Shown here: piece after piece, positions 29,950 through 39,908 of the stretch
Layout: each line of letters starts with the position of its first letter
Position numbering within the stretch: the stretch's first letter is position 1
Source: Chryseosolibacter histidini
GTDB lineage: Bacteria > Bacteroidota > Bacteroidia > Cytophagales > Cyclobacteriaceae
DNA: 64,000 bases
Assembly (NCBI RefSeq): GCF_018598225.1
Contig: NZ_JAHESF010000007.1
Coordinates: 68,554-132,553 of the forward strand
Direction: 5' to 3'
Program-made: the position numbers and the translations under genes
Notes under the pieces: model-generated
Database searches by the model: none
What the model saw: the letters and a program-made list of their open reading frames with translations, nothing else
Told to the model about the DNA's origin: nothing

Positions 29950-30687
29950 TTACGCCATCGCAGAACGGAACTCAGTTCGCTCTGCCCAGGCTAGTTTGTC
30001 TGGCATTTCTTGCGAATTGAATTCCAGGTGGATCACGCGCCTGTGTTTCAGGCTTGTTGCTTTTGACGACGCATGAAGAAGCAGTGGCTTCATGATCTGG
30101 ATGCCACACGCCGGAACTTCACAGACATAAGGGATACTGTTTTGCGTGATGAGGGCAATCTCATCATCCGACAACTTTTTATTGTGCGAGCCAGGGATCA
30201 CTTTCAGGGCACCATTCGTCTCATCGGTATCGTCAAGGTGAATTCTCACGGTAACAGTATTTTTCAGGTATTCATCGGGAGGCACTACGCCATGCACACC
30301 GAACTTCTTCGTCCATCCCGTAAAACCGTTGATTTCAATTTTTTCGTTCACATTGATCACAATGTCCTGGTGCCAGGTAACATACCAGTTCGACTCCTGT
30401 GTTTTATCGAAGTAAATGGCTTTTGTAAGGAACAGGGCCGGATCGATGGTGTCCAGGATCTTCAGCAGATTGGAATTGAGGGCCAACGACTTCAATCCTG
30501 GTATTTCCTGCAAAAGGTTTCTGATGGCATAAGTGTCCTCCGATTTGGCTTCACAGTACGCCTGCAGCATGGACTTCATCTGGTCCAACTCATTCTGTGT
30601 AAAGATATGATGAAGGATGCAAAAACCCTTATCGGTCAAGTGTTGAATATTACTAAGGAGTGCAGTATTGTCCCTGTTAACAGTCAT
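29950..30687 (-). CDS. Phytanoyl-CoA dioxygenase (PhyH)-family Fe(II)/2-oxoglutarate oxygenase
   Basis: WHQDIV...IHLDDTDETNGALKVIPGSH facial-triad motif arrangement typical of PhyH. Confidence 0.7.
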   Translation of the reverse strand: MTVNRDNTALLSNIQHLTDKGFCILHHIFTQNELDQMKSMLQAYCEAKSEDTYAIRNLLQEIPGLKSLALNSNLLKILDTIDPALFLTKAIYFDKTQESNWYVTWHQDIVINVNEKIEINGFTGWTKKFGVHGVVPPDEYLKNTVTVRIHLDDTDETNGALKVIPGSHNKKLSDDEIALITQNSIPYVCEVPACGIQIMKPLLLHASSKATSLKHRRVIHLEFNSQEMPDKLAWAERTEFRSAMA

Positions 30688-30973: not shown

Positions 30974-31118
30974 CTGCGGGTCGAAGGTTCGATTCCTTCC
31001 CGGTCGAGGCCGGTAGCTCAGTTTGGAAGAGCAGCAGGATGGGTCACGGGTTCGAATCCCGTTCACACTTCAAATGTGATAGCTCAGTTTGGTAGAGCAC
31101 ATGGCTTTTAACCATGAG
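30974..31118 (+). other. Mosaic of tRNA-derived fragments with no intact tRNA: a tRNA 3' piece, a chimeric tRNA-like module with acceptor end, D-arm and T-arm but no anticodon arm, and a 5' two-thirds of tRNA-Lys(TTT) lacking a T-arm
   Basis: 30974-31007 reads GGGTCGAAGGTTCGATTCCTTCCCGGTCGA (T-arm plus 3' acceptor). 31008-31070 reads GGCCGGTAGCTCAGTTTGGAAGAGC...ACGGGTTCGAATCCCGTTCACACTT (D-arm and T-arm only). 31073-31118 reads AATGTGATAGCTCAGTTTGGTAGAGCACATGGCTTTTAACCATGAG (D-arm plus anticodon arm with TTT anticodon, then no T-arm). Confidence 0.6.
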
Positions 31119-31450
31119 AATGAAGCTGACCGCTTCTAAAAAAGGTTACCTCTCGAAAGCAGTTCGGGGGCGCATCGGGCCTGCATGTGAAACATTCCTC
31201 GGGATGTTAGCCTGAAGGCCAGTTTGCTGAAAACCAGTATGTGTAAGGATACCGGATAGCAAGTCGGTTTGCTTTTCTGCATGCCAGCCTGTCTTCTTAA
31301 GGAGACCCTCTCCCCAGACAAGACAGGATAAGCGCAGAAAACCAAACTAAATGCAGCTGTCCTCAATTACACTTCCGTTTTCGGGAGATGATGTGTTTGT
31401 GAACTGCTTTCTTTTAAAATGACTTTATTAACGATTAATTTTTTTTTACA

Positions 31451-32551
31451 ATGAAAAGGATCAGGATCAACACCGGAAAAATTGGCTTGGTGTTCAGGAA
31501 TGGTAACTACAAGAACATGGTTACAGAAGGTGCGTATTGGTTATTCCCGAATGAGGATTCATTCGAGTACGATATGACAAAACCGTTCCATCCTTCCGTT
31601 GACCTGAACATCCTGTTGCGCGATGAGCAGCTGGCAAATATGCTGACGATCGTAGAAGTACGGGATAACGAAATTGTGCTGCAGTACGAAAACGGAAACT
31701 TTAAAACCGTACTGGCACCGGGAAGATACGCTTACTGGAAAGGCGTGACCGATTACACTTTCATCAAAGCAGACCTGAGCAAGATCGAGGTTACTGAAAA
31801 CATCGACAAGTATACGATCATGCGAAAAGAGGTATTGCCTTACGTCAGGGTGTTTACGGTGGAGTCTTTCGAAAAAGGTATCCTGCTGATCGATGGTAAA
31901 TTCTCCAAAGTGCTCGACACAGGCGTGTACTACTTCTGGAAAAACCCTGTCGTTGTCTCTGTGCTGAAAGCAGACCTGAGGCAACTGCAGCTCGAGGTTT
32001 CCGGACAGGAGATCCTGACGAAAGACAAAGCTGCCCTGCGGATCAACTTCTTCACCCAATACAAAGTGGTTGACATTATCAAAGCTTTGATCGACAACAA
32101 GGACTACGATAAACAACTGTATATCCTGATGCAGCTGGCGCTGCGGGAGTTCATCGGCACACTGTCGCTGGATGAATTGCTGGAGAAAAAAGAATCCATT
32201 TCCGCCTATGTGCTGGCCACGCTGAAAGATAAAGCTTACAACCTGGGTGTGGAGATCCGGGACTGCGGCGTCAGGGACATCATCCTGCCGGGTGAAGTGA
32301 AAGAGATCATGAACCAGGTGCTGGTGGCCCAGAAAAAAGCTGAAGCCAACGTGATCATGAGGCGTGAAGAAACGGCTTCCACCAGGAGCCTGCTGAACAC
32401 TGCCAAACTGATGGAAGAAAACTCCATGCTCTTCAAATTGAAAGAAATGGAGTACGTGGAGAAGATCGCCGACAAGATCAACAGTATCTCGTTATCAGGA
32501 GGTAACCAGGTTATTGATCAGCTGAAGGAGATCTTTGTTCCTAAAAAATGA
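31451..32551 (+). CDS. Cytoplasmic SPFH/band-7 (stomatin/slipin-like) protein with duplicated N-terminal beta-rich module
   Basis: C-terminal SPFH core LALREFIGTLSLDELLEKKESISAYVLATLKDKAYNLGVEIRDCGVRDIILPGEVKEIMNQVLVAQKKAEANVIMRRE. No TM helix. N-terminal region has two similar segments (GKIGLVFRNGNYKNMVTEGAYW / GILLIDGKFSKVLDTGVYYFW). Confidence 0.75.
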   Translation: MKRIRINTGKIGLVFRNGNYKNMVTEGAYWLFPNEDSFEYDMTKPFHPSVDLNILLRDEQLANMLTIVEVRDNEIVLQYENGNFKTVLAPGRYAYWKGVTDYTFIKADLSKIEVTENIDKYTIMRKEVLPYVRVFTVESFEKGILLIDGKFSKVLDTGVYYFWKNPVVVSVLKADLRQLQLEVSGQEILTKDKAALRINFFTQYKVVDIIKALIDNKDYDKQLYILMQLALREFIGTLSLDELLEKKESISAYVLATLKDKAYNLGVEIRDCGVRDIILPGEVKEIMNQVLVAQKKAEANVIMRREETASTRSLLNTAKLMEENSMLFKLKEMEYVEKIADKINSISLSGGNQVIDQLKEIFVPKK

Positions 32552-32812: not shown

Positions 32813-34219
32813 ATGAACTTAACAGGTAACGATCTTAAAAATATAGGATTTGCGGAAGGTAAGGCGTTGGGATTGGCGCTTCAGATCATGGAGCAGCAAT
32901 ATCAGACGATGAGCACCGGGGATAAGCTGGTGCTGCTGAAAGGAGTTTTTGAAGATCCATCTGCTTATGTCAACGATGTAAAGCTTTCGGCATTGGCGCA
33001 TGAGTTGCTTAAACCGGGAGACGATACCATTCCATTGAATGTGGCTGGTAAACCTTATCAGATCTATGGCGCAGATGCCATTGAACAGGGTGCGTTGAGC
33101 CAGATGGAAACGGCCATGAAGCTGCCCGTGACGGTAGCCGGCGCTTTGATGCCGGACGCGCACCAGGGTTACGGCCTTCCTATCGGCGGGGTGCTTGCCA
33201 CACAAAATGCAGTGATCCCATATGGTGTCGGTGTCGATATCGGATGCCGGATGTGCATGACGGTATATAACCTGCCGGTGACAGCGCTCACTGAAAAGAA
33301 AGAGGAGTTTAAAAAGCTGCTCGTCAACAACACCAGGTTCGGTATGGCTACTTTCAACAAACCAAAAGATCACGAGATCTTTGAAAGAAAAGCGTTCAGC
33401 GAGCTTGGCATTGCCCGTGAAATGAAAGACCGCGCATGGCAGCAGATCGGATCATCAGGCGGTGGCAATCACTTTGTAGAGTTCGGTATTGTTGAGATCC
33501 TCGATCCGGTGAACGAATTTAACCTGGCGCCTGGACGTTACGTAGCGCTGCTCTCGCATTCAGGCTCCCGTGGACTGGGTGCCAACATTGCCCGTCATTA
33601 TACGAAGATCGCTATGGACACCTGCAAACTTCCGCAAGAAGCAAAACACCTTGCGTGGCTTGACCTCGATACCGAAGCGGGACAGGAGTACTGGCTTGCC
33701 ATGAACCTTGCCGGCGATTATGCCTCGGCCTGTCATCACCAGATCCATGAGCGGATGGCCATCGGGTTGCGTGAGACACCCCTCGCCATGATCGAGAACC
33801 ACCATAACTTTGCATGGAAGGAGAAAGATGCCGCAGGAAACGAGCTGATCGTTCACCGCAAAGGTGCAACACCCGCGGGAAAAGGTGTGCTCGGAATTAT
33901 TCCGGGATCGATGGCCACACCCGGCTTTATTGTCCGTGGCAAAGGACTTGCCGAGTCGATCAATTCTGCATCGCACGGCGCGGGCAGAACCATGTCGCGA
34001 ACGAAGGCCAAACAAACCATCCTGCAAGGTCATGTGAACAAGTTCCTGAAAGAAGCCGGAGTCGAGCTGATCGGCTCGGGTCTCGACGAAGCGCCCATGG
34101 CATACAAGGACATTCACCAGGTGATGGGTTACCAGCAATCACTCGTTGGAGTGCTCGGCTCGTTCATGCCAAAAATTGTGAGAATGTGTGGTGATGCGAA
34201 GTTCCAAGAGGTGGACTAA
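32813..34219 (+). CDS. rtcB: RtcB-family RNA 3'-phosphate/2',3'-cyclic-phosphate ligase (archaeo-eukaryotic type), paralog 1, with ~90 aa N-terminal extension
   Basis: MPDAHQGYGLPIGGV, GVDIGCRM, GGGNHFVEFG, NHHNFAWKE and HRKGATPA motifs. The metal-binding and GMP-His architecture is diagnostic of RtcB. Confidence 0.9.
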   Translation: MNLTGNDLKNIGFAEGKALGLALQIMEQQYQTMSTGDKLVLLKGVFEDPSAYVNDVKLSALAHELLKPGDDTIPLNVAGKPYQIYGADAIEQGALSQMETAMKLPVTVAGALMPDAHQGYGLPIGGVLATQNAVIPYGVGVDIGCRMCMTVYNLPVTALTEKKEEFKKLLVNNTRFGMATFNKPKDHEIFERKAFSELGIAREMKDRAWQQIGSSGGGNHFVEFGIVEILDPVNEFNLAPGRYVALLSHSGSRGLGANIARHYTKIAMDTCKLPQEAKHLAWLDLDTEAGQEYWLAMNLAGDYASACHHQIHERMAIGLRETPLAMIENHHNFAWKEKDAAGNELIVHRKGATPAGKGVLGIIPGSMATPGFIVRGKGLAESINSASHGAGRTMSRTKAKQTILQGHVNKFLKEAGVELIGSGLDEAPMAYKDIHQVMGYQQSLVGVLGSFMPKIVRMCGDAKFQEVD

Positions 34220-34248: not shown

Positions 34249-35463
34249 TCAGGATTTCCGGCTTTTTACCAGCATCCAAAAGAAAAATGAGAGCAAGATA
34301 AAAGCCGAAACGCTGTAGATACGAAAACGTACAAATGAAACCTCTGCGCCACGTGTTTTCATACCACTGTGACTCCATGCAATAAAGGCATCGGCCAGGG
34401 GTATCACGCCGAAGAAGTATTTTTTCGTATCTGCAGTTTGCCACGGAAAGGCCATGGCTTCAACAGTACCCCGTATGCTGGCACTCAGATCCTGCTCGCC
34501 ATACAATGATAAGGTCTGCATGCCTACAATGGTTGCGGCGCCACCAAAGCCAAAGATCACAGGACCGGAATCTATATCACCCATCCCTGATACACCTTTG
34601 GGGTACTCTCTAACGCCCGTAAGACCCAACCAGCTATCGATGAACTTCTCTTTAAAAAGTGCGAACTGCTCCCGGGCGAGTGGCGCATCGATCTCACGCA
34701 AAAAGATCAGCATCAGCGCCAGCGATGATCCTCTTGCAGGCTCGCGCGCGCGGCCATCGGCGGGAAGTACCGCGTGCGGGATCATTCCATCTGCGTCGAC
34801 ATGTTTTCTTACTTCCGTCACCCAATGATCAATCACGTCTTTGTATTGCGGCGTGAAAAGCTTATCGTGTAACGAAAGTGATGCAACGCACACCATAACA
34901 TCTGCAGGCCATGCGCTTCCATAATAGCTTACCGGATAAGTTCTTTGTTGAATCGCTTTCGCGATCGCAGCACATTGCTGTTTGAACTGATCCATTTCTT
35001 TTTTATCCCTGATGTCAGCATCTTCAATTTTCAGCTTTGAACCCAGCACATACGAGCTCCAGCCGTTGTAGAAAGATCCGTAGGGCAAAGAAAGTTCATC
35101 GTTGAAGGGCGCTCTGCCTGTTGGCGAATTAATTTTCAACAACGCTTTGTGCATCTCGGCCCGGCCTTCGCTCACGAAGCTGTTGTTAGCACGATGCTCT
35201 AAAAATGAAGACCATGTCAGGGCATATATGGCGTTAAAAAATACATACCCTTCCGGGAAAATATGTTGCATGTCAGTATCCGCGTGCTGATCTAATGCTT
35301 TCTTCAGTCCCCGTAATTCTTTGACAAGCGTTTGATCAACTTTATCATCACCACTTATTATTGATTCAGAAGTGTTGTTGATGTTCACATTCATTGTCAC
35401 CACTAGCGCCATGAGGACCATCAGCGGCAAAGCGATCATCAGTTTAAAAATTCCCTTCAGCAT
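34249..35463 (-). CDS. Hypothetical membrane-anchored protein (N-terminal signal anchor and C-terminal TM helix), opposite strand between the two rtcB genes
   Basis: 404 aa with hydrophobic N-terminus MIALPLMVLMALVVT and C-terminal AFILLSFFFWMLV. No recognisable catalytic motif. Confidence 0.5.
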   Translation of the reverse strand: MLKGIFKLMIALPLMVLMALVVTMNVNINNTSESIISGDDKVDQTLVKELRGLKKALDQHADTDMQHIFPEGYVFFNAIYALTWSSFLEHRANNSFVSEGRAEMHKALLKINSPTGRAPFNDELSLPYGSFYNGWSSYVLGSKLKIEDADIRDKKEMDQFKQQCAAIAKAIQQRTYPVSYYGSAWPADVMVCVASLSLHDKLFTPQYKDVIDHWVTEVRKHVDADGMIPHAVLPADGRAREPARGSSLALMLIFLREIDAPLAREQFALFKEKFIDSWLGLTGVREYPKGVSGMGDIDSGPVIFGFGGAATIVGMQTLSLYGEQDLSASIRGTVEAMAFPWQTADTKKYFFGVIPLADAFIAWSHSGMKTRGAEVSFVRFRIYSVSAFILLSFFFWMLVKSRKS

Positions 35464-35801: not shown

Positions 35802-37208
35802 ATGGGCAAACATAAACTCAATATTAAAGACCTCTCTCCTATCAGCTTTCCCTCTGAGGTGGCCAAAAGCCTGGCATTGAACCTTATGAACAGGCATTTC
35901 AAACACACACCCAATGATGAGAAGCTGGCGTTGATCACAAAAGTGCTCGCAGACCCTGATGCATACATCACTCATGATACACTGAGTTTGCTGGCACATA
36001 AGCTTATTTCCAAATCTGTTCTTGAAACTTTTAAAACGTATGAACTCGACGATGAACCCAAACACTTTGACATTTTCGGCAGCAAGCACATTGAAGTAAA
36101 TGCCGTCCAACAAATGGAACTAGCCATGCGACTTCCCATTGCCGTAAAAGGTGCGCTCATGCCCGATGCACATCAGGGTTACGGACTGCCTATCGGCGGC
36201 GTGCTGGCCACAAAGAATGCCGTGATCCCTTACGGTGTCGGGATGGACATTGGATGCAGGATGGCCCTCAGCATACTCGATGTTCCCGCCAGTTACGTGG
36301 AGCATCATGCCTATGAGATCAAACAGGCGCTGGGGGATCATACACATTTTGGCAATGACGGTGGCCTCGATACCAGGCAGGAGCATCCGGTGCTCGATCA
36401 TCCGGATTTTCAGCAAACTGATCTTCTCAGAAGATTGCATGGAAAAGCTGCAAGACAGCTCGGCAGCTCGGGCTCGGGAAATCACTTTGTTGAGCTCGGC
36501 ATCATCGAGGTTGGTGACGACAATACACTGGGAATTGAATCCGGCGCGTATGCTGCCATACTATCGCATTCCGGCTCCCGAAGCCTGGGTGCCAACATCG
36601 CTCAGCATTATACGGATATTGCGATGAACAAATGCAGACTTCCGCGGGAGGCAAAACACCTCGCATGGTTAACGCTGGATACTGAAGAGGGCCAGGCTTA
36701 CTGGTTATCCATGAATCTTGCGGGCGAATATGCAAAGGCCTGCCATGACCAGATCCATAAAAACCTTTGCAACGCCCTGGGCGCTGGCATCGTGAAGCGT
36801 GTTGAGAACCATCACAACTTCGCCTGGAAGGAAACATTAGCGGACGGGAATGAATACATCGTCCACCGGAAGGGTGCTACGCCGGCCGCGAAAGGTGTGT
36901 TTGGCATAATCCCCGGAAGCATGACAGCGCCCGGATATGTGGTAAGCGGGTTGGGAAACGAATTGTCACTGAACTCTGCTGCCCATGGCGCGGGAAGAAA
37001 AATGTCGAGGTTCAAAGCTAAAAATTCCATCACGATGAGCAGCCTGAAAAAGTTGCTGCAAAGCGAGAAGGTAACACTGATCGGCGGTAGTACAGAAGAG
37101 GCGCCAGCGGCTTACAAGGATATCGAGCTGATCATGCACAACCAGACAACGCTGGTAAATATTGAAGGCAAATTCCATCCCCGCATTGTGAGGATGGCTA
37201 AAGATTAA
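35802..37208 (+). CDS. rtcB: RtcB-family RNA ligase, paralog 2 (about 60% identical to paralog 1, with the same N-terminal extension)
   Basis: MPDAHQGYGLPIGGV, GMDIGCRM, GSGNHFVELG, NHHNFAWKE and HRKGATPAAKGV motifs. N-terminal extension LALITKVLADPDAYITHDTLSLLAHKLI parallels LVLLKGVFEDPSAYVNDVKLSALAHELL of paralog 1. Confidence 0.9.
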   Translation: MGKHKLNIKDLSPISFPSEVAKSLALNLMNRHFKHTPNDEKLALITKVLADPDAYITHDTLSLLAHKLISKSVLETFKTYELDDEPKHFDIFGSKHIEVNAVQQMELAMRLPIAVKGALMPDAHQGYGLPIGGVLATKNAVIPYGVGMDIGCRMALSILDVPASYVEHHAYEIKQALGDHTHFGNDGGLDTRQEHPVLDHPDFQQTDLLRRLHGKAARQLGSSGSGNHFVELGIIEVGDDNTLGIESGAYAAILSHSGSRSLGANIAQHYTDIAMNKCRLPREAKHLAWLTLDTEEGQAYWLSMNLAGEYAKACHDQIHKNLCNALGAGIVKRVENHHNFAWKETLADGNEYIVHRKGATPAAKGVFGIIPGSMTAPGYVVSGLGNELSLNSAAHGAGRKMSRFKAKNSITMSSLKKLLQSEKVTLIGGSTEEAPAAYKDIELIMHNQTTLVNIEGKFHPRIVRMAKD

Positions 37209-37214
37209 AAAACT

Positions 37215-39296
37215 ATGGAAACGAATATTTCACATTCAGAACTTATTCTCAGGAAGCAGAAGCTGGAGCAGGTAAAGTCGGAGCTCAAGGCGAAGTTTCT
37301 TGGCCTTGACGGGATCATCGACGAAGTGACCTCATTGATCATGCCATGGTATCTTTTTCCGGAAGCACAGCTGAGACCCACCATCATCAATCTGTGGGGT
37401 CTGACCGGGTCGGGTAAAACTGCACTGGTGCAGGCTTTCGTAGAACAGCTGGAGTACAGGAAGTTTTACAGTCACATCGATATGGGTGAGTTTGAATCCG
37501 ACTCGGCTACGTGGATCAAAAACATTCTGACAGACGACCTGGATTTCTTCCATGAAAAACCGGCGCTGATCTGCCTGGACGAATTTCAATTCGCCAGAAC
37601 CCTGGATGGCAATAACAACGAGCTTGGAAAAGATAAATTGAGGGTGATCTGGGACCTGCTTGACTCCGGGAAGATCGAGTATATTCCGGGACAAGGCACC
37701 TACTACCTTTTCAGGGCCGAGAACTGCCTGCGAAGAATCGATAAGGCGATCAAGGAAGGTGTAACGCTGGCCAATGGACGGATAGAATATGGCCTCGACC
37801 GTTTCTCAACCATCTTCAGTGGTTTCTTCTTCGACTATAACGACAGGAGCCATGCAACCCAGGATGAGAACTACTTTATGTCCGACGATTTTGTGAACGG
37901 CATGTTCTACCTGTTTGATGATGACGAGTGTTCAAGGGATCATATCAAGGAAATGGTGAAGGCGTCAACGCTTGATGCGCTCAAAATACTCATAACAAAA
38001 GGAATGCATACGAGGCCAGCCACCAAAACGCTGGACCTTTCTCACTGCCTGATCTTCGTATTGGGAAACCTGGATGAGGCTTATACCATGAGCCACAACA
38101 TGAATCCTGATATCAGCGCGGATGAGTTTCACGAACAGACCTCGAAGATCACCATCGCGGACATCAAGCGGGCACTGCGCAAGCGATTCAGACCTGAGCA
38201 GATCGCGCGGTTGGGAAACAACCACGTTATCTATAAGTCGTTCAACAATGCACAGTTCAGGTTACTGATCAGGCAGGAGCTGCAGCGGATCGCTGACTTT
38301 GTTCTTCAGCAGTTTCGCTGGAAAGTCTCTTTCGACGAATCGGTGGTGAATATCGTTTATGCCGAAGGTGTATTTCCAGCGCAAGGCACGAGGCCTGTGT
38401 TGACAACGGTGAAAAACCTCATCGAGTCAAGGATCAGCAGCGTGGTGGTCTCCATTCTCGAGTATCAGCTGAAGATCGACGAGATCGAATGGCGGTTCGA
38501 CAACGGTAACTTCGAATATACACTGAAAGATGCAAACGGTGTTGCCGTTCTGACAGTGTCTGACCCGGGCAGGCTGAAGCTCGAGGACCTCCGGAAAAGC
38601 ATCGATCCGGAAATTCAGGCGCACACTGCCGTGCACGAAGCGGGCCACGCTGTGCTGGCAGCCCTTACGTTAAGGATCGTGCCGACAGTTGTTGTGTCGC
38701 GGACCGCCTCCGATATGGAAGGTTTTTGCCTGGTGAATTTTCCCAAAGGTCCTATGACAAGGCAATCTTTGAAGAAAGACATCGTGATCACACTTGGCGG
38801 ACTTGTAGCTGAAAGAATGATCTTCGGCGAAGACATGACATCCTCGGGCGTATGCAGTGATATCGAAGAAGCTTCGAGGTTGGCCAACAAAGCTATCAGG
38901 GAGTATGGTATGGGGTCAGACCCGCTTCGGCTGGCGTTGCAGGCACAAAATGATGATGCCTTCCTGGTTACTGATAAGTACACAACAGAAGCCATCAGGA
39001 TCATTAAGGAATGCGAAGCCGAGGCTGAAAGGATCCTGACCAATAACAAGCTCCTGTTGCTGAAAATGTCTGAATACCTGACAACACATTCAAGAATGGA
39101 AGAGCCGATGATCGAGACGTATGTAAAAAGATACGGACAGGAAGAATGGATCCAGACCCAAGGGCTGATCAAAAATGACCAGTACTATAAATTCAACACA
39201 ATATTGCAGGGTCAGATCAAGGATCTGCAAAACGAATCTGTAGATTCGGAGATCGAGCGGATCATTTCCACGGTCAGAGAAGAGAGCACTGTTTAA
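37215..39296 (+). CDS. Soluble AAA+/Clp-like P-loop ATPase fused to FtsH-type M41 zinc-metalloprotease domain
   Basis: Walker A GLTGSGKT and Walker B LICLDEF. Sensor-2/lid-like RPEQIARLGNNHVIYKSF. C-terminal HEAGHAV zinc motif followed by LGGLVAERMIFGED, which matches FtsH HEAGHA...LGGRAAEE. No TM helices. The start is 7 bp after rtcB paralog 2. Confidence 0.7.
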   Translation: METNISHSELILRKQKLEQVKSELKAKFLGLDGIIDEVTSLIMPWYLFPEAQLRPTIINLWGLTGSGKTALVQAFVEQLEYRKFYSHIDMGEFESDSATWIKNILTDDLDFFHEKPALICLDEFQFARTLDGNNNELGKDKLRVIWDLLDSGKIEYIPGQGTYYLFRAENCLRRIDKAIKEGVTLANGRIEYGLDRFSTIFSGFFFDYNDRSHATQDENYFMSDDFVNGMFYLFDDDECSRDHIKEMVKASTLDALKILITKGMHTRPATKTLDLSHCLIFVLGNLDEAYTMSHNMNPDISADEFHEQTSKITIADIKRALRKRFRPEQIARLGNNHVIYKSFNNAQFRLLIRQELQRIADFVLQQFRWKVSFDESVVNIVYAEGVFPAQGTRPVLTTVKNLIESRISSVVVSILEYQLKIDEIEWRFDNGNFEYTLKDANGVAVLTVSDPGRLKLEDLRKSIDPEIQAHTAVHEAGHAVLAALTLRIVPTVVVSRTASDMEGFCLVNFPKGPMTRQSLKKDIVITLGGLVAERMIFGEDMTSSGVCSDIEEASRLANKAIREYGMGSDPLRLALQAQNDDAFLVTDKYTTEAIRIIKECEAEAERILTNNKLLLLKMSEYLTTHSRMEEPMIETYVKRYGQEEWIQTQGLIKNDQYYKFNTILQGQIKDLQNESVDSEIERIISTVREESTV

Positions 39297-39356: not shown

Positions 39357-39908
39357 ATGATCAACGAAAAAGAAAATAAACGGATCAGCAAGTTCCTGAG
39401 TCTCGTGCTGCGACACAAGCCGGAGACGGTCCATATCGAACTGGACGGAAACGGCTGGACGGATGTGGATGTCCTGATCGAACGTATGCGCGAACATCAG
39501 TTTAACATCAGCCGGGAGATCCTGGCGCACGTTGTGAGCACGAATGACAAAAGCCGGTTTGCCTTCAGTGACGATCTCACCCGGATCCGGGCGAGCCAGG
39601 GTCATTCTGTTGACATCGACCTGGGCTACGAAGCACAACAGCCACCACCTGTTCTGTATCATGGCACAACGGAGAATGCCCTTGCTTCGATCCTGAAAAC
39701 GGGATTGGAAAAACGGGACAGGCACCATGTTCATCTCAGCACGGAGATCAAAACCGCCACTGCCGTGGGCCAGCGATACGGGAAGCCAACCATCCTTCAG
39801 GTGGCAGCCGGTGAAATGTTCCAGGATGGTTACCGGTTTTACCGAACGGATAACAACGTGTGGCTCACAGATCACGTACCGGTGAAGTACTTTACGGTTA
39901 TTGAATAG
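39357..39908 (+). CDS. kptA: RNA 2'-phosphotransferase Tpt1/KptA
   Basis: KFLSLVLRHKPE, LYHGTTENALASILKTGL and RHHVHLS motifs with catalytic Arg/His residues, typical of Tpt1/KptA. 183 aa. Confidence 0.85.
   Translation: MINEKENKRISKFLSLVLRHKPETVHIELDGNGWTDVDVLIERMREHQFNISREILAHVVSTNDKSRFAFSDDLTRIRASQGHSVDIDLGYEAQQPPPVLYHGTTENALASILKTGLEKRDRHHVHLSTEIKTATAVGQRYGKPTILQVAAGEMFQDGYRFYRTDNNVWLTDHVPVKYFTVIE

Follow-up and report, generated by a model that had tools for sequence, protein, structure and literature searches.

Among described ATP-dependent machines, FtsH, Yme1 and AFG3L2 join an AAA ATPase and an M41 zinc peptidase, in this order, in one chain with transmembrane (TM) helices, and the Clp/Hsp100 proteins (ClpB, ClpC, ClpE, ClpA, Hsp104) carry a D2 AAA+ module and either dock on ClpP or act as disaggregases. 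LonA is a soluble single-chain protease in which an AAA+ module of the HCLR clade is followed by a C-terminal peptidase, and it serves in quality control and stress. The nearest RNA-repair systems, the Salmonella Rsr(Ro60)-YrlA-RtcBA operon and the RtcB2-PrfH module of E. coli and Capnocytophaga (PMC9304027, PMC12829566, PMC6514570), are known as sets of RNA enzymes with, in the latter, a release factor; the fate of protein debris or of the toxin has not been addressed in them. Here we describe a gene from a 64,000-nucleotide (nt) stretch of Chryseosolibacter histidini DNA (contig NZ_JAHESF010000007.1, positions 68,554 to 132,553; hereafter the window) that touches both fields. It lies between genes for the RNA ligase RtcB and the RNA 2'-phosphotransferase KptA, and its predicted product is a soluble, ATP-dependent zinc protease with a new combination of modules. 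On sequence evidence this protein is a chimera of a Clp/Hsp100 D2-type AAA+ module (HCLR clade) and an M41 peptidase, and not an FtsH stripped of its anchor.

An earlier note on this DNA had described a membrane-less, FtsH-like protease, which is right for only one half of the protein: the M41 half is homologous to FtsH, whereas the ATPase half is of the Clp D2 type and not an FtsH AAA module. The open reading frame (ORF) and the quoted motifs lie where that note had placed them, with GLTGSGKT starting at residue 62, LICLDEF at 118, RPEQIARLGNNHVIYKSF at 326, HEAGHAV at 474 and LGGLVAERMIFGED at 527 (Table 1). The Pfam model Peptidase_M41 (PF01434) covers residues 463-628 with a score of 69.7 bits (gathering threshold 29.9), and a profile built from 40 diverse family members and searched against the PDB aligned residues ~461-654 with FtsH/Yme1 protease domains (E=1.7e-27). 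In published FtsH structures, the Asp aligned with D549 is the third zinc ligand of M41 peptidases. With its gathering score, its HExxH motif and this downstream Asp, the protein belongs to peptidase family M41.

The lack of a membrane anchor was also confirmed. A Kyte-Doolittle scan in 19-residue windows revealed no TM-grade segment, N-terminus included, and the hydropathy maximum (1.74) falls on the HEAGH helix of the M41 domain. There is no room for an overlooked N-terminal anchor, because the gene begins 6 nt after the upstream RtcB gene, and family members share the length and start of the query protein. FtsH, Yme1 and AFG3L2 remain the best full-length structural matches and have the same order of ATPase and peptidase; the protein described here differs from them in lacking not only TM helices but also a periplasmic domain and an FtsH-type pore loop, and in having a D2-type motor with ~110 extra residues instead of an AAA module of the classical clade.

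In the same PDB search, residues 1-455 matched only the D2 modules of ClpC, ClpE, ClpB, Hsp104 and ClpA (E ~1e-15 to 1e-17), which are the only significant sequence relatives of this half. The FtsH AAA module was never matched by the family profile, FtsH chains covering residues 449-654 only. The alignment to Clp D2 falls into two blocks, one spanning residues 13-97 (the pre-D2 helix, Walker A, and beta2 with IDMGEF for IDMSEY) and the other residues 253-437 (the sensor-1 strand, FRPEQIARLG for FRPEFLNRVD, QGTRP for GARP, and the D2-small domain); a strand resembling LLDDG is likewise shared. Walker A and B, sensor-1, FRPE, GARP and the D2-small domain together assign the motor to the Clp/Hsp100 D2 type. 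All generic Pfam AAA models stay below threshold (PF00004, 17.9 bits vs a cut-off of 21.2), the NCBIfam FtsH equivalog TIGR01241 reaches 62.2 bits vs a cut-off of 600 with the M41 part alone aligned, and the ClpB and ClpA equivalogs reach 41 bits vs 1232 and 30 bits vs 993. PF07724 or PF10431 is annotated on some homologues.

An AlphaFold2 monomer model computed from the family alignment (pLDDT 85.8, pTM 0.73) supports both folds. At full length Foldseek retrieved FtsH/Yme1-type proteases, and with the ATPase part ClpB NBD2 and ClpC D2 (target-normalised TM-scores of 0.71-0.72). In contrast to Clp/Hsp104, the protein has a single ATPase module and lacks a second AAA+ ring (D1), an N-domain, an M-domain and the GYVG loop; it carries a large insert at the pre-sensor-1 hairpin, and its peptidase is fused to the motor. 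LonA is similar in outline as a soluble single-chain fusion of an HCLR-clade AAA+ module and a peptidase, but its peptidase is the Ser-Lys S16 type rather than a zinc M41 domain, and no Lon family was found among the Pfam or NCBIfam matches of the protease.

Across 40 family members (28-70% identical to the query), K68, D122, N285 (within LIFVLGNLDEAY), E328, R332, R393, H474, E475, H478 and D549 are invariant, and conservation is at least 90% for E123 and R326; R326 is invariant in one alignment (A2) and at least 90% conserved in another (A1), with E328 and R332 invariant. Both predicted active sites are under selection. The motif RPEQIARLGNN, previously taken for a sensor-2, aligns with FRPEFLNRVD of Clp, and sensor-2 is instead R393 in QGTRP; in ClpB/Hsp104, FRPE is the arginine-finger motif and GARP is sensor-2. 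The predicted arginine finger R326 and the M41 domain make assembly into a ring likely.

The motor has two peculiarities. Between beta2 and Walker B, where Clp D2 modules carry their GYVG pore loop, no conserved motif of the GYVG type (aromatic-hydrophobic-Gly) was found among the 40 members. This spacer has 27-35 residues (~43 in Clp), the profile alignments to Clp D2 end at residue 96-97, and the Walker A-Walker B segment aligned alone to solved Clp structures gave nothing significant. Absence of the canonical pore loop in the family is thus well supported, if short of proven. Further along, the distance from G152 (in LLDSGK, compare LLDDG of Clp) to N285 is 120-148 residues throughout the family and ~22 in Clp D2, which implies an insert of ~110 residues at the pre-sensor-1 hairpin position and agrees with the inserted segments of the earlier description. 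Both the insert and the whole protein are acidic, and no RNA-binding domain was recognised. The protein may be regarded as a natural experiment in AAA+ design, in which an HCLR-clade motor serves an M41 chamber without a canonical pore loop and with a new insert.

The family is large. When the ATPase half alone was searched against 1.84 billion cluster representatives, 1358 matches were obtained at E<1e-3 and 799 clusters (50% identity) at E<1e-30; the two-module architecture is fixed, since nearly all of these matches are 660-720 amino acids (aa) long. In a scan of one genome per species, relatives were encoded in at least 535 species, overwhelmingly Bacteroidota (Cytophagales, Chitinophagales, Bacteroidales and Flavobacteriales), with others in Ignavibacteria/Kapabacteria. 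Their distribution is patchy and sporadic, and the accessory contexts vary. The database label "cell division protease FtsH", borne by some homologues, is misleading; a sequence from Fulvivirgaceae bacterium PWU4 that is 100% identical to the protein described here is named "hypothetical protein".

The position between RtcB and KptA, which had been flagged as unusual, is real and no local accident, because the link to RNA repair recurs in distant family members. ORFs were called in 81 non-redundant loci of bacterial homologues and grouped into clusters with no labels given beforehand, and the clusters that recurred were then annotated with Pfam. RtcB is encoded in 29 of the 81 loci, always within 5 kb, and lies directly upstream on the same strand in 25 (RtcB-to-protease gaps 3-85 nt, mostly 3-33 nt). 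A PrfH-type release factor (~209 aa, with an RF-1 domain and GGQ) is encoded between RtcB and the protease in 15-16 loci, and the gaps from the upstream PrfH or RtcB gene are mostly 1-33 nt. KptA, found in 5 loci from two distant clades, is always within 5 kb and on the same strand (downstream in 4). Other recurrent neighbours are an RNA ligase (PF09414) with HD-Pnk (5 loci, mostly downstream), Rsr/Ro60 (5, nearby), SPFH (5, next to RtcB), DUF2779 (7, mostly downstream) and HTH-WYL-WCX regulators (28, often directly upstream); the WYL genes (with WCX and sometimes PhyH) often form two- or three-gene units with DUF2779. Where at least 5 kb was available on both sides (48 loci), an RNA-repair gene was present in 24, a WYL regulator in 20 and either of them in 38.

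In a neighbour-joining tree the RtcB-PrfH(-KptA) order appears in two clades with only ~33% mutual identity, and WYL(-DUF2779) clades lie between them. In Chryseolinea, Thg1 and a PNK-like kinase stand beside the protease gene in place of RtcB; at the Dawidia locus no repair gene was found. With a few RtcB genes per ~5-Mb genome, we estimate, in place of a computed control, that chance would put RtcB within 5 kb in well under 1% of cases. The predicted functional link to RNA repair and ribosome rescue is secure; it is tight, operonic, present across deep branches of the family and formed with non-homologous repair enzymes.

The family is apparently also carried by large uncultivated phages. 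IMG/VR contains 167 relatives, of which we took 80 loci (44 groups at 85% identity). They are ~580-780 aa long and at most ~40% identical to the bacterial members compared, and they retain HExxH in 80 of 80 and Walker A in 79 of 80 cases. The flanking ORFs are short (median mostly 100-200 aa, compared with 275 aa in bacterial loci). Ten of the 44 groups have tRNA genes within 6 kb, nine have an RNA-repair gene and 17 have either; some of the tRNA arrays include suppressor tRNAs. Nineteen near-identical contigs form a group in which a 721-aa fusion of polynucleotide kinase (AAA_33), metallophosphatase and Rnl1-type ligase (phrog_8238) is encoded divergently from the protease homologue (L184, 1106-3271, minus strand), with TelA and a DHH-family protein downstream. 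On a 150 kb contig (L207, 2593-5092 and 5989-12996), eight tRNAs including a TTA suppressor and a tmRNA (tag GETTYALAA) form a block that ends ~900 nt upstream of the protease homologue, after which come DUF1848, an HNH homing endonuclease and a full-length Hsp70. CTA suppressor tRNAs occur on contigs L164-L167 and L175, and the suppressor tRNAs on these phage-like contigs suggest stop-codon recoding. GenBank phages were dropped as carriers, as three different queries gave no full-length homologue among their records.

We consider it probable, if only just, that the protein belongs to a response to RNA damage, in which it would clear the protein by-products left when RNA toxins attack translation, as gene order and sequence suggest. 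The family would then be an optional proteolytic accessory of RNA-damage response modules. Ribonuclease toxins would cut tRNA or rRNA; RtcB, KptA and other heal-and-seal enzymes would mend the RNA; PrfH (in a phage, tmRNA) would free stalled ribosomes; and the protease would remove the by-products, most likely incomplete and already unfolded polypeptides off those ribosomes. Expression would presumably be induced by damage. The enzyme would be cytoplasmic and probably ring-forming, with ATP binding and hydrolysis (Walker A/B, sensor-1, arginine finger and sensor-2 being intact) feeding substrate into the M41 chamber, and the family-specific helical insert may recognise the substrate or a partner. 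Without the canonical GYVG pore loop, the protease would probably unfold proteins only weakly and be suited to chains that are already unfolded. We favour nascent chains as the substrate since the gene directly follows PrfH in many loci, since tmRNA and Hsp70 are its neighbours on a phage-like contig, and since its motor lacks the loop used by strong unfoldases. The earlier note had suggested a component or antagonist of the RNA-repair pathway as a possible substrate.

Several observations weigh against this reading. A reverse search, started from PrfH genes of the same type in metagenome contigs, found the protease in 1 of ~20 PrfH loci with RtcB upstream, although the sequence continues for more than 2 kb downstream in 7 of the others; in E. 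coli, moreover, two genes suffice for a working RtcB2-PrfH system (PMC9304027). Neither kind of gene, repair or WYL, is present in 10 of the 48 well-flanked bacterial loci (about a fifth), and one clade lacks a recognisable partner gene. PrfH, Rsr and WYL genes are all absent from the window. No full-length homologue was found in GenBank phage records with three different queries, so the assignment to phages rests on uncultivated contigs, and the argument for the missing pore loop comes from spacer length, non-conservation and a failed alignment. From its rarity in the reverse search we conclude that the protease is dispensable for RtcB-PrfH function, an accessory found in a subset of these operons and not part of their core, and we discarded a role as the core third gene.

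The attacking ribonuclease itself could be the substrate, be it a colicin-like rRNase or tRNase, an anticodon nuclease or the toxin of a toxin-antitoxin pair, and phages could use the protease as counter-defence against host anticodon nucleases while their ligase repairs the tRNA. We hold this to be doubtful, although the genomic linkage that underlies clearance of nascent chains would serve it equally. The sporadic accessory distribution is typical of conflict genes, the frequent WYL regulators often control defence genes, and phage-like contigs carry an adjoining kinase-phosphatase-Rnl1 fusion, a type of enzyme (kinase-phosphatase, Rnl1 ligase) that T4 uses against the PrrC anticodon nuclease. 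Folded nucleases, however, would need a competent unfoldase, and the family conserves no canonical pore loop; PrfH, tmRNA and Hsp70 as neighbours indicate handling of translation products, no adjoining toxin or immunity gene was recognised, and PADLOC gave no match. Less likely again is a ribonucleoprotein remodeller, whose ring would extract or degrade ribosomal or RNA-bound proteins and thereby expose broken ends to RtcB and KptA, or dismantle irreparable ribosomes. Tight operonic coupling to RtcB and PrfH and the co-occurrence of scaffold-type components (SPFH, Rsr and Y-RNA-like RNAs) would suit such a machine, and the atypical pore and large insert could be a docking surface, but the acidic insert and protein, without a recognisable RNA-binding domain, would not. 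Many loci, moreover, pair the protease with a WYL regulator only, and catalytic sites that are both fully conserved speak for a true protease.

The WYL regulators, adjacent in 28 of the 81 loci and often in a unit with DUF2779, would fit a protease that degrades a repressor or anti-activator (for example, a WYL regulator's partner) or an abortive-infection effector switched on by WYL. We regard either role as improbable, given that PADLOC has no match, that the last or middle position in repair operons fits a repair effector better than a switch, and that phage-like genomes with tRNAs argue against abortive infection there. A diverged housekeeping FtsH with cryptic membrane association, which the names of some homologues and the full-length structural matches to FtsH/Yme1 might suggest, has next to no chance of being correct and was rejected: no TM segment is present, the ATPase is of the wrong clade and matches Clp D2 only, TIGR01241 stays an order of magnitude below its cut-off (62 vs 600), the distribution is patchy and the contexts variable, and the 6 nt after RtcB leave no room for an N-terminal extension. 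An HflK/C-like arrangement, with SPFH as a membrane tether in place of the FtsH anchor, was likewise set aside, as no TM segment was seen in the SPFH protein and only 5 of the 81 loci encode one.

More broadly, and only tentatively, we propose that clearance by this non-canonical-pore Clp-D2/M41 chimera, acting with PrfH, tmRNA and RNA ligases to destroy released nascent chains or the toxin, may constitute an unrecognised proteolytic arm of the RNA-damage response in Bacteroidota and some large phages. If true, bacteria would have their own counterpart of eukaryotic ribosome quality control (Vms1, Cdc48 and the proteasome; for the Vms1/Cdc48 background see PMC6514570), with peptide release by a release-factor-like hydrolase coupled to an AAA+ motor and nascent-chain proteolysis. 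The likeness is a functional analogy only: the AAA+ and protease components are not homologous, no ubiquitin is involved, and the bacterial coupling is drawn from gene order alone. A large, conserved and uncharacterised protease family that is wired into repair modules through non-homologous ligases (RtcB, Rnl1-type and PF09414-type), and that occurs in bacteria as well as in phage-like genomes, is a concrete, testable candidate for the missing step.

The gene order of the window resembles the RtcB2-PrfH module in that RtcB lies directly upstream of the protease, a position that in 15-16 related loci belongs to the RtcB-PrfH pair; it differs in having no PrfH, and the described two-gene system does not count a protease among its accessories. 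For RFH-RtcB, the accessories on record comprise a TPR protein, a Pol-beta NTase, a ZnR protein and a charged helical protein (PMC6514570), and a protease is mentioned neither in the main text of that paper nor in the two experimental PrfH papers. Among the papers searched we found none that describes the family or names M41 with RtcB, with the reservation that a mention in Burroughs and Aravind 2016 (NAR 44:8525) cannot be excluded. The Tpt1 repair cluster of Runella slithyformis was considered as the same system and dismissed, as it consists of HD-Pnk, ligase, Tpt1 and methyltransferase (PMC6097658).

Table 1. Features of the protease gene and of the neighbouring RNA-repair cluster in the window
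Feature	Position	Strand	Evidence or remark
PhyH-type 2-oxoglutarate (2OG)-Fe(II) dioxygenase, stand-alone	29950..30687	-	
Tandem pair of YrlA-like (Y-RNA-like, permuted tRNA-like) modules, followed by a third, tRNA-like one	30975..31137	+	~310-480 nt upstream of SPFH
SPFH/Band-7 protein, first gene of cluster	31451..32551	+	Pfam Band_7 118 bits; no TM segment (hydropathy)
RtcB paralogue 1	32813..34219	+	52% identical to paralogue 2
404-aa membrane protein	34249..35463	-	no Pfam/NCBIfam family; between the RtcB genes
RtcB RNA ligase paralogue 2	35802..37208	+	Pfam RtcB 262 bits; same operon as protease, ends 6 nt before it
Protease gene	37215..39296	+	ORF and translation, 693 aa
Walker A GLTGSGKT, residues 62-69	37398..37421	+	motif position and conservation; K68 invariant
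Beta2 (IDMGEF)-to-Walker B segment, position of Clp D2 GYVG pore loop	37479..37565	+	short, poorly conserved
Walker B LICLDEF, residues 118-124	37566..37586	+	D122 invariant; E123 invariant or nearly so
Family-specific helical insert (~110 residues), residues ~157-268	37683..38018	+	between LLDSGK strand and sensor-1 strand
Sensor-1 asparagine N285	38067..38069	+	invariant
Arginine-finger motif FRPEQIARLGN, residues 325-335	38187..38219	+	aligns with ClpC FRPEFLNRVD; conservation
Sensor-2 motif QGTRP, residues 390-394	38382..38396	+	aligns with ClpC/Hsp104 GARP; R393 invariant
ClpB_D2-small-like domain	after QGTRP, to ~residue 455		NCBIfam ClpB/ClpV/ClpA C-terminal matches, residues 262-425
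M41 peptidase domain, residues ~463-640	38601..39134	+	Pfam; PDB alignments to Yme1 and E. coli FtsH
Zinc-binding HEAGH	38634..38648	+	H474, E475, H478 invariant
D549	38859..38861	+	invariant; aligns with Asp of E. coli FtsH GASND and Yme1 GSD
KptA/Tpt1 RNA 2'-phosphotransferase	39357..39908	+	Pfam 166 bits; NCBIfam equivalog 255 bits vs 239; starts 60 nt after protease

Upstream of SPFH, the two YrlA-like modules of the window match the Rfam YrlA model with 46.8 and 38.5 bits (E=3.5e-9 and 9e-7) against a gathering threshold of 69, and the match is confined to the tRNA-like T-arm/D-arm core. The third module matches the tRNA model with 33.5 bits; its anticodon-like loop reads CUUUUAA, and an acceptor stem is missing. 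No tRNA was called by ARAGORN in 30975-31137, and the fold stability of the Y-RNA-like region relative to shuffled sequences (z = -0.16) lends no support. Four of the five SPFH loci have the same permuted tRNA-like element, 350-450 nt upstream of the SPFH gene. An association of SPFH/Band-7 proteins with tRNA-like RNA modules was reportedly proposed by Burroughs and Aravind in 2016. These elements upstream of SPFH and RtcB, together with Rsr in five related loci, recall the Salmonella Rsr-YrlA-RtcBA operon. That operon, however, is described without a protease, and its defining elements (a YrlA above gathering, Rsr and RtcR) do not come together in the window, where the RNA matches are sub-gathering, Rsr is absent and no RtcR was found among the annotated neighbours.

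Regulators of 574-617 aa that fuse HTH-WYL-WCX to a C-terminal PhyH domain are encoded divergently from YrlA-like RNAs or Rsr in two other loci (L009, 6568-8292, and L013, 17649-19382, both on the minus strand). Their PhyH domain is homologous to the stand-alone PhyH gene of the window, which holds the equivalent position, so the layout of a regulator divergent from a Y-RNA-like RNA is partly kept there. Promoter and terminator scans of the window gave no excess over shuffled sequence, Bacteroidota promoters falling outside the models used. A search of PADLOC-DB 2.0 returned no match for the protease, either RtcB or KptA, and SPFH matched PDC-S64 weakly (E=0.0012).

Both RtcB paralogues have a ~95-residue N-terminal extension before the Pfam RtcB domain and score below the NCBIfam "release_rtcB" cut-off. 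The opposite-strand protein encoded between them has hydrophobic N- and C-termini and is common only to the closest locus (L006), and it was not retained as a conserved partner. KptA is found inside the RtcB operon although ligation by RtcB leaves no 2'-phosphate to remove, which hints at another KptA activity or a second route of ligation.

In Chryseolinea soli (L001, 2461-9602), a co-oriented run of genes before the protease encodes a PNK-like kinase, Thg1, a 2OG oxygenase, an unknown protein, Band_7, another unknown protein, an ADP-ribosylglycohydrolase and an unknown 529-aa protein. This run looks like another candidate RNA-repair or de-ADP-ribosylation cluster.

Transfer RNA genes also accompany several of the bacterial clusters. 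A tRNA-Arg(ACG) gene lies between the YrlA-like element and the protease in four loci (L009, 9023-9095; L010, 2858-2933; L014, 8966-9038; L029, 8961-9033), Pro-Arg-Leu tRNA genes are present in L006 (2034-2302), and an Arg-Tyr-Lys-Phe-Pro array follows two full-length but sub-threshold YrlA matches in L019 (1494-1903). These genes could be spare copies of the targets of anticodon nucleases.

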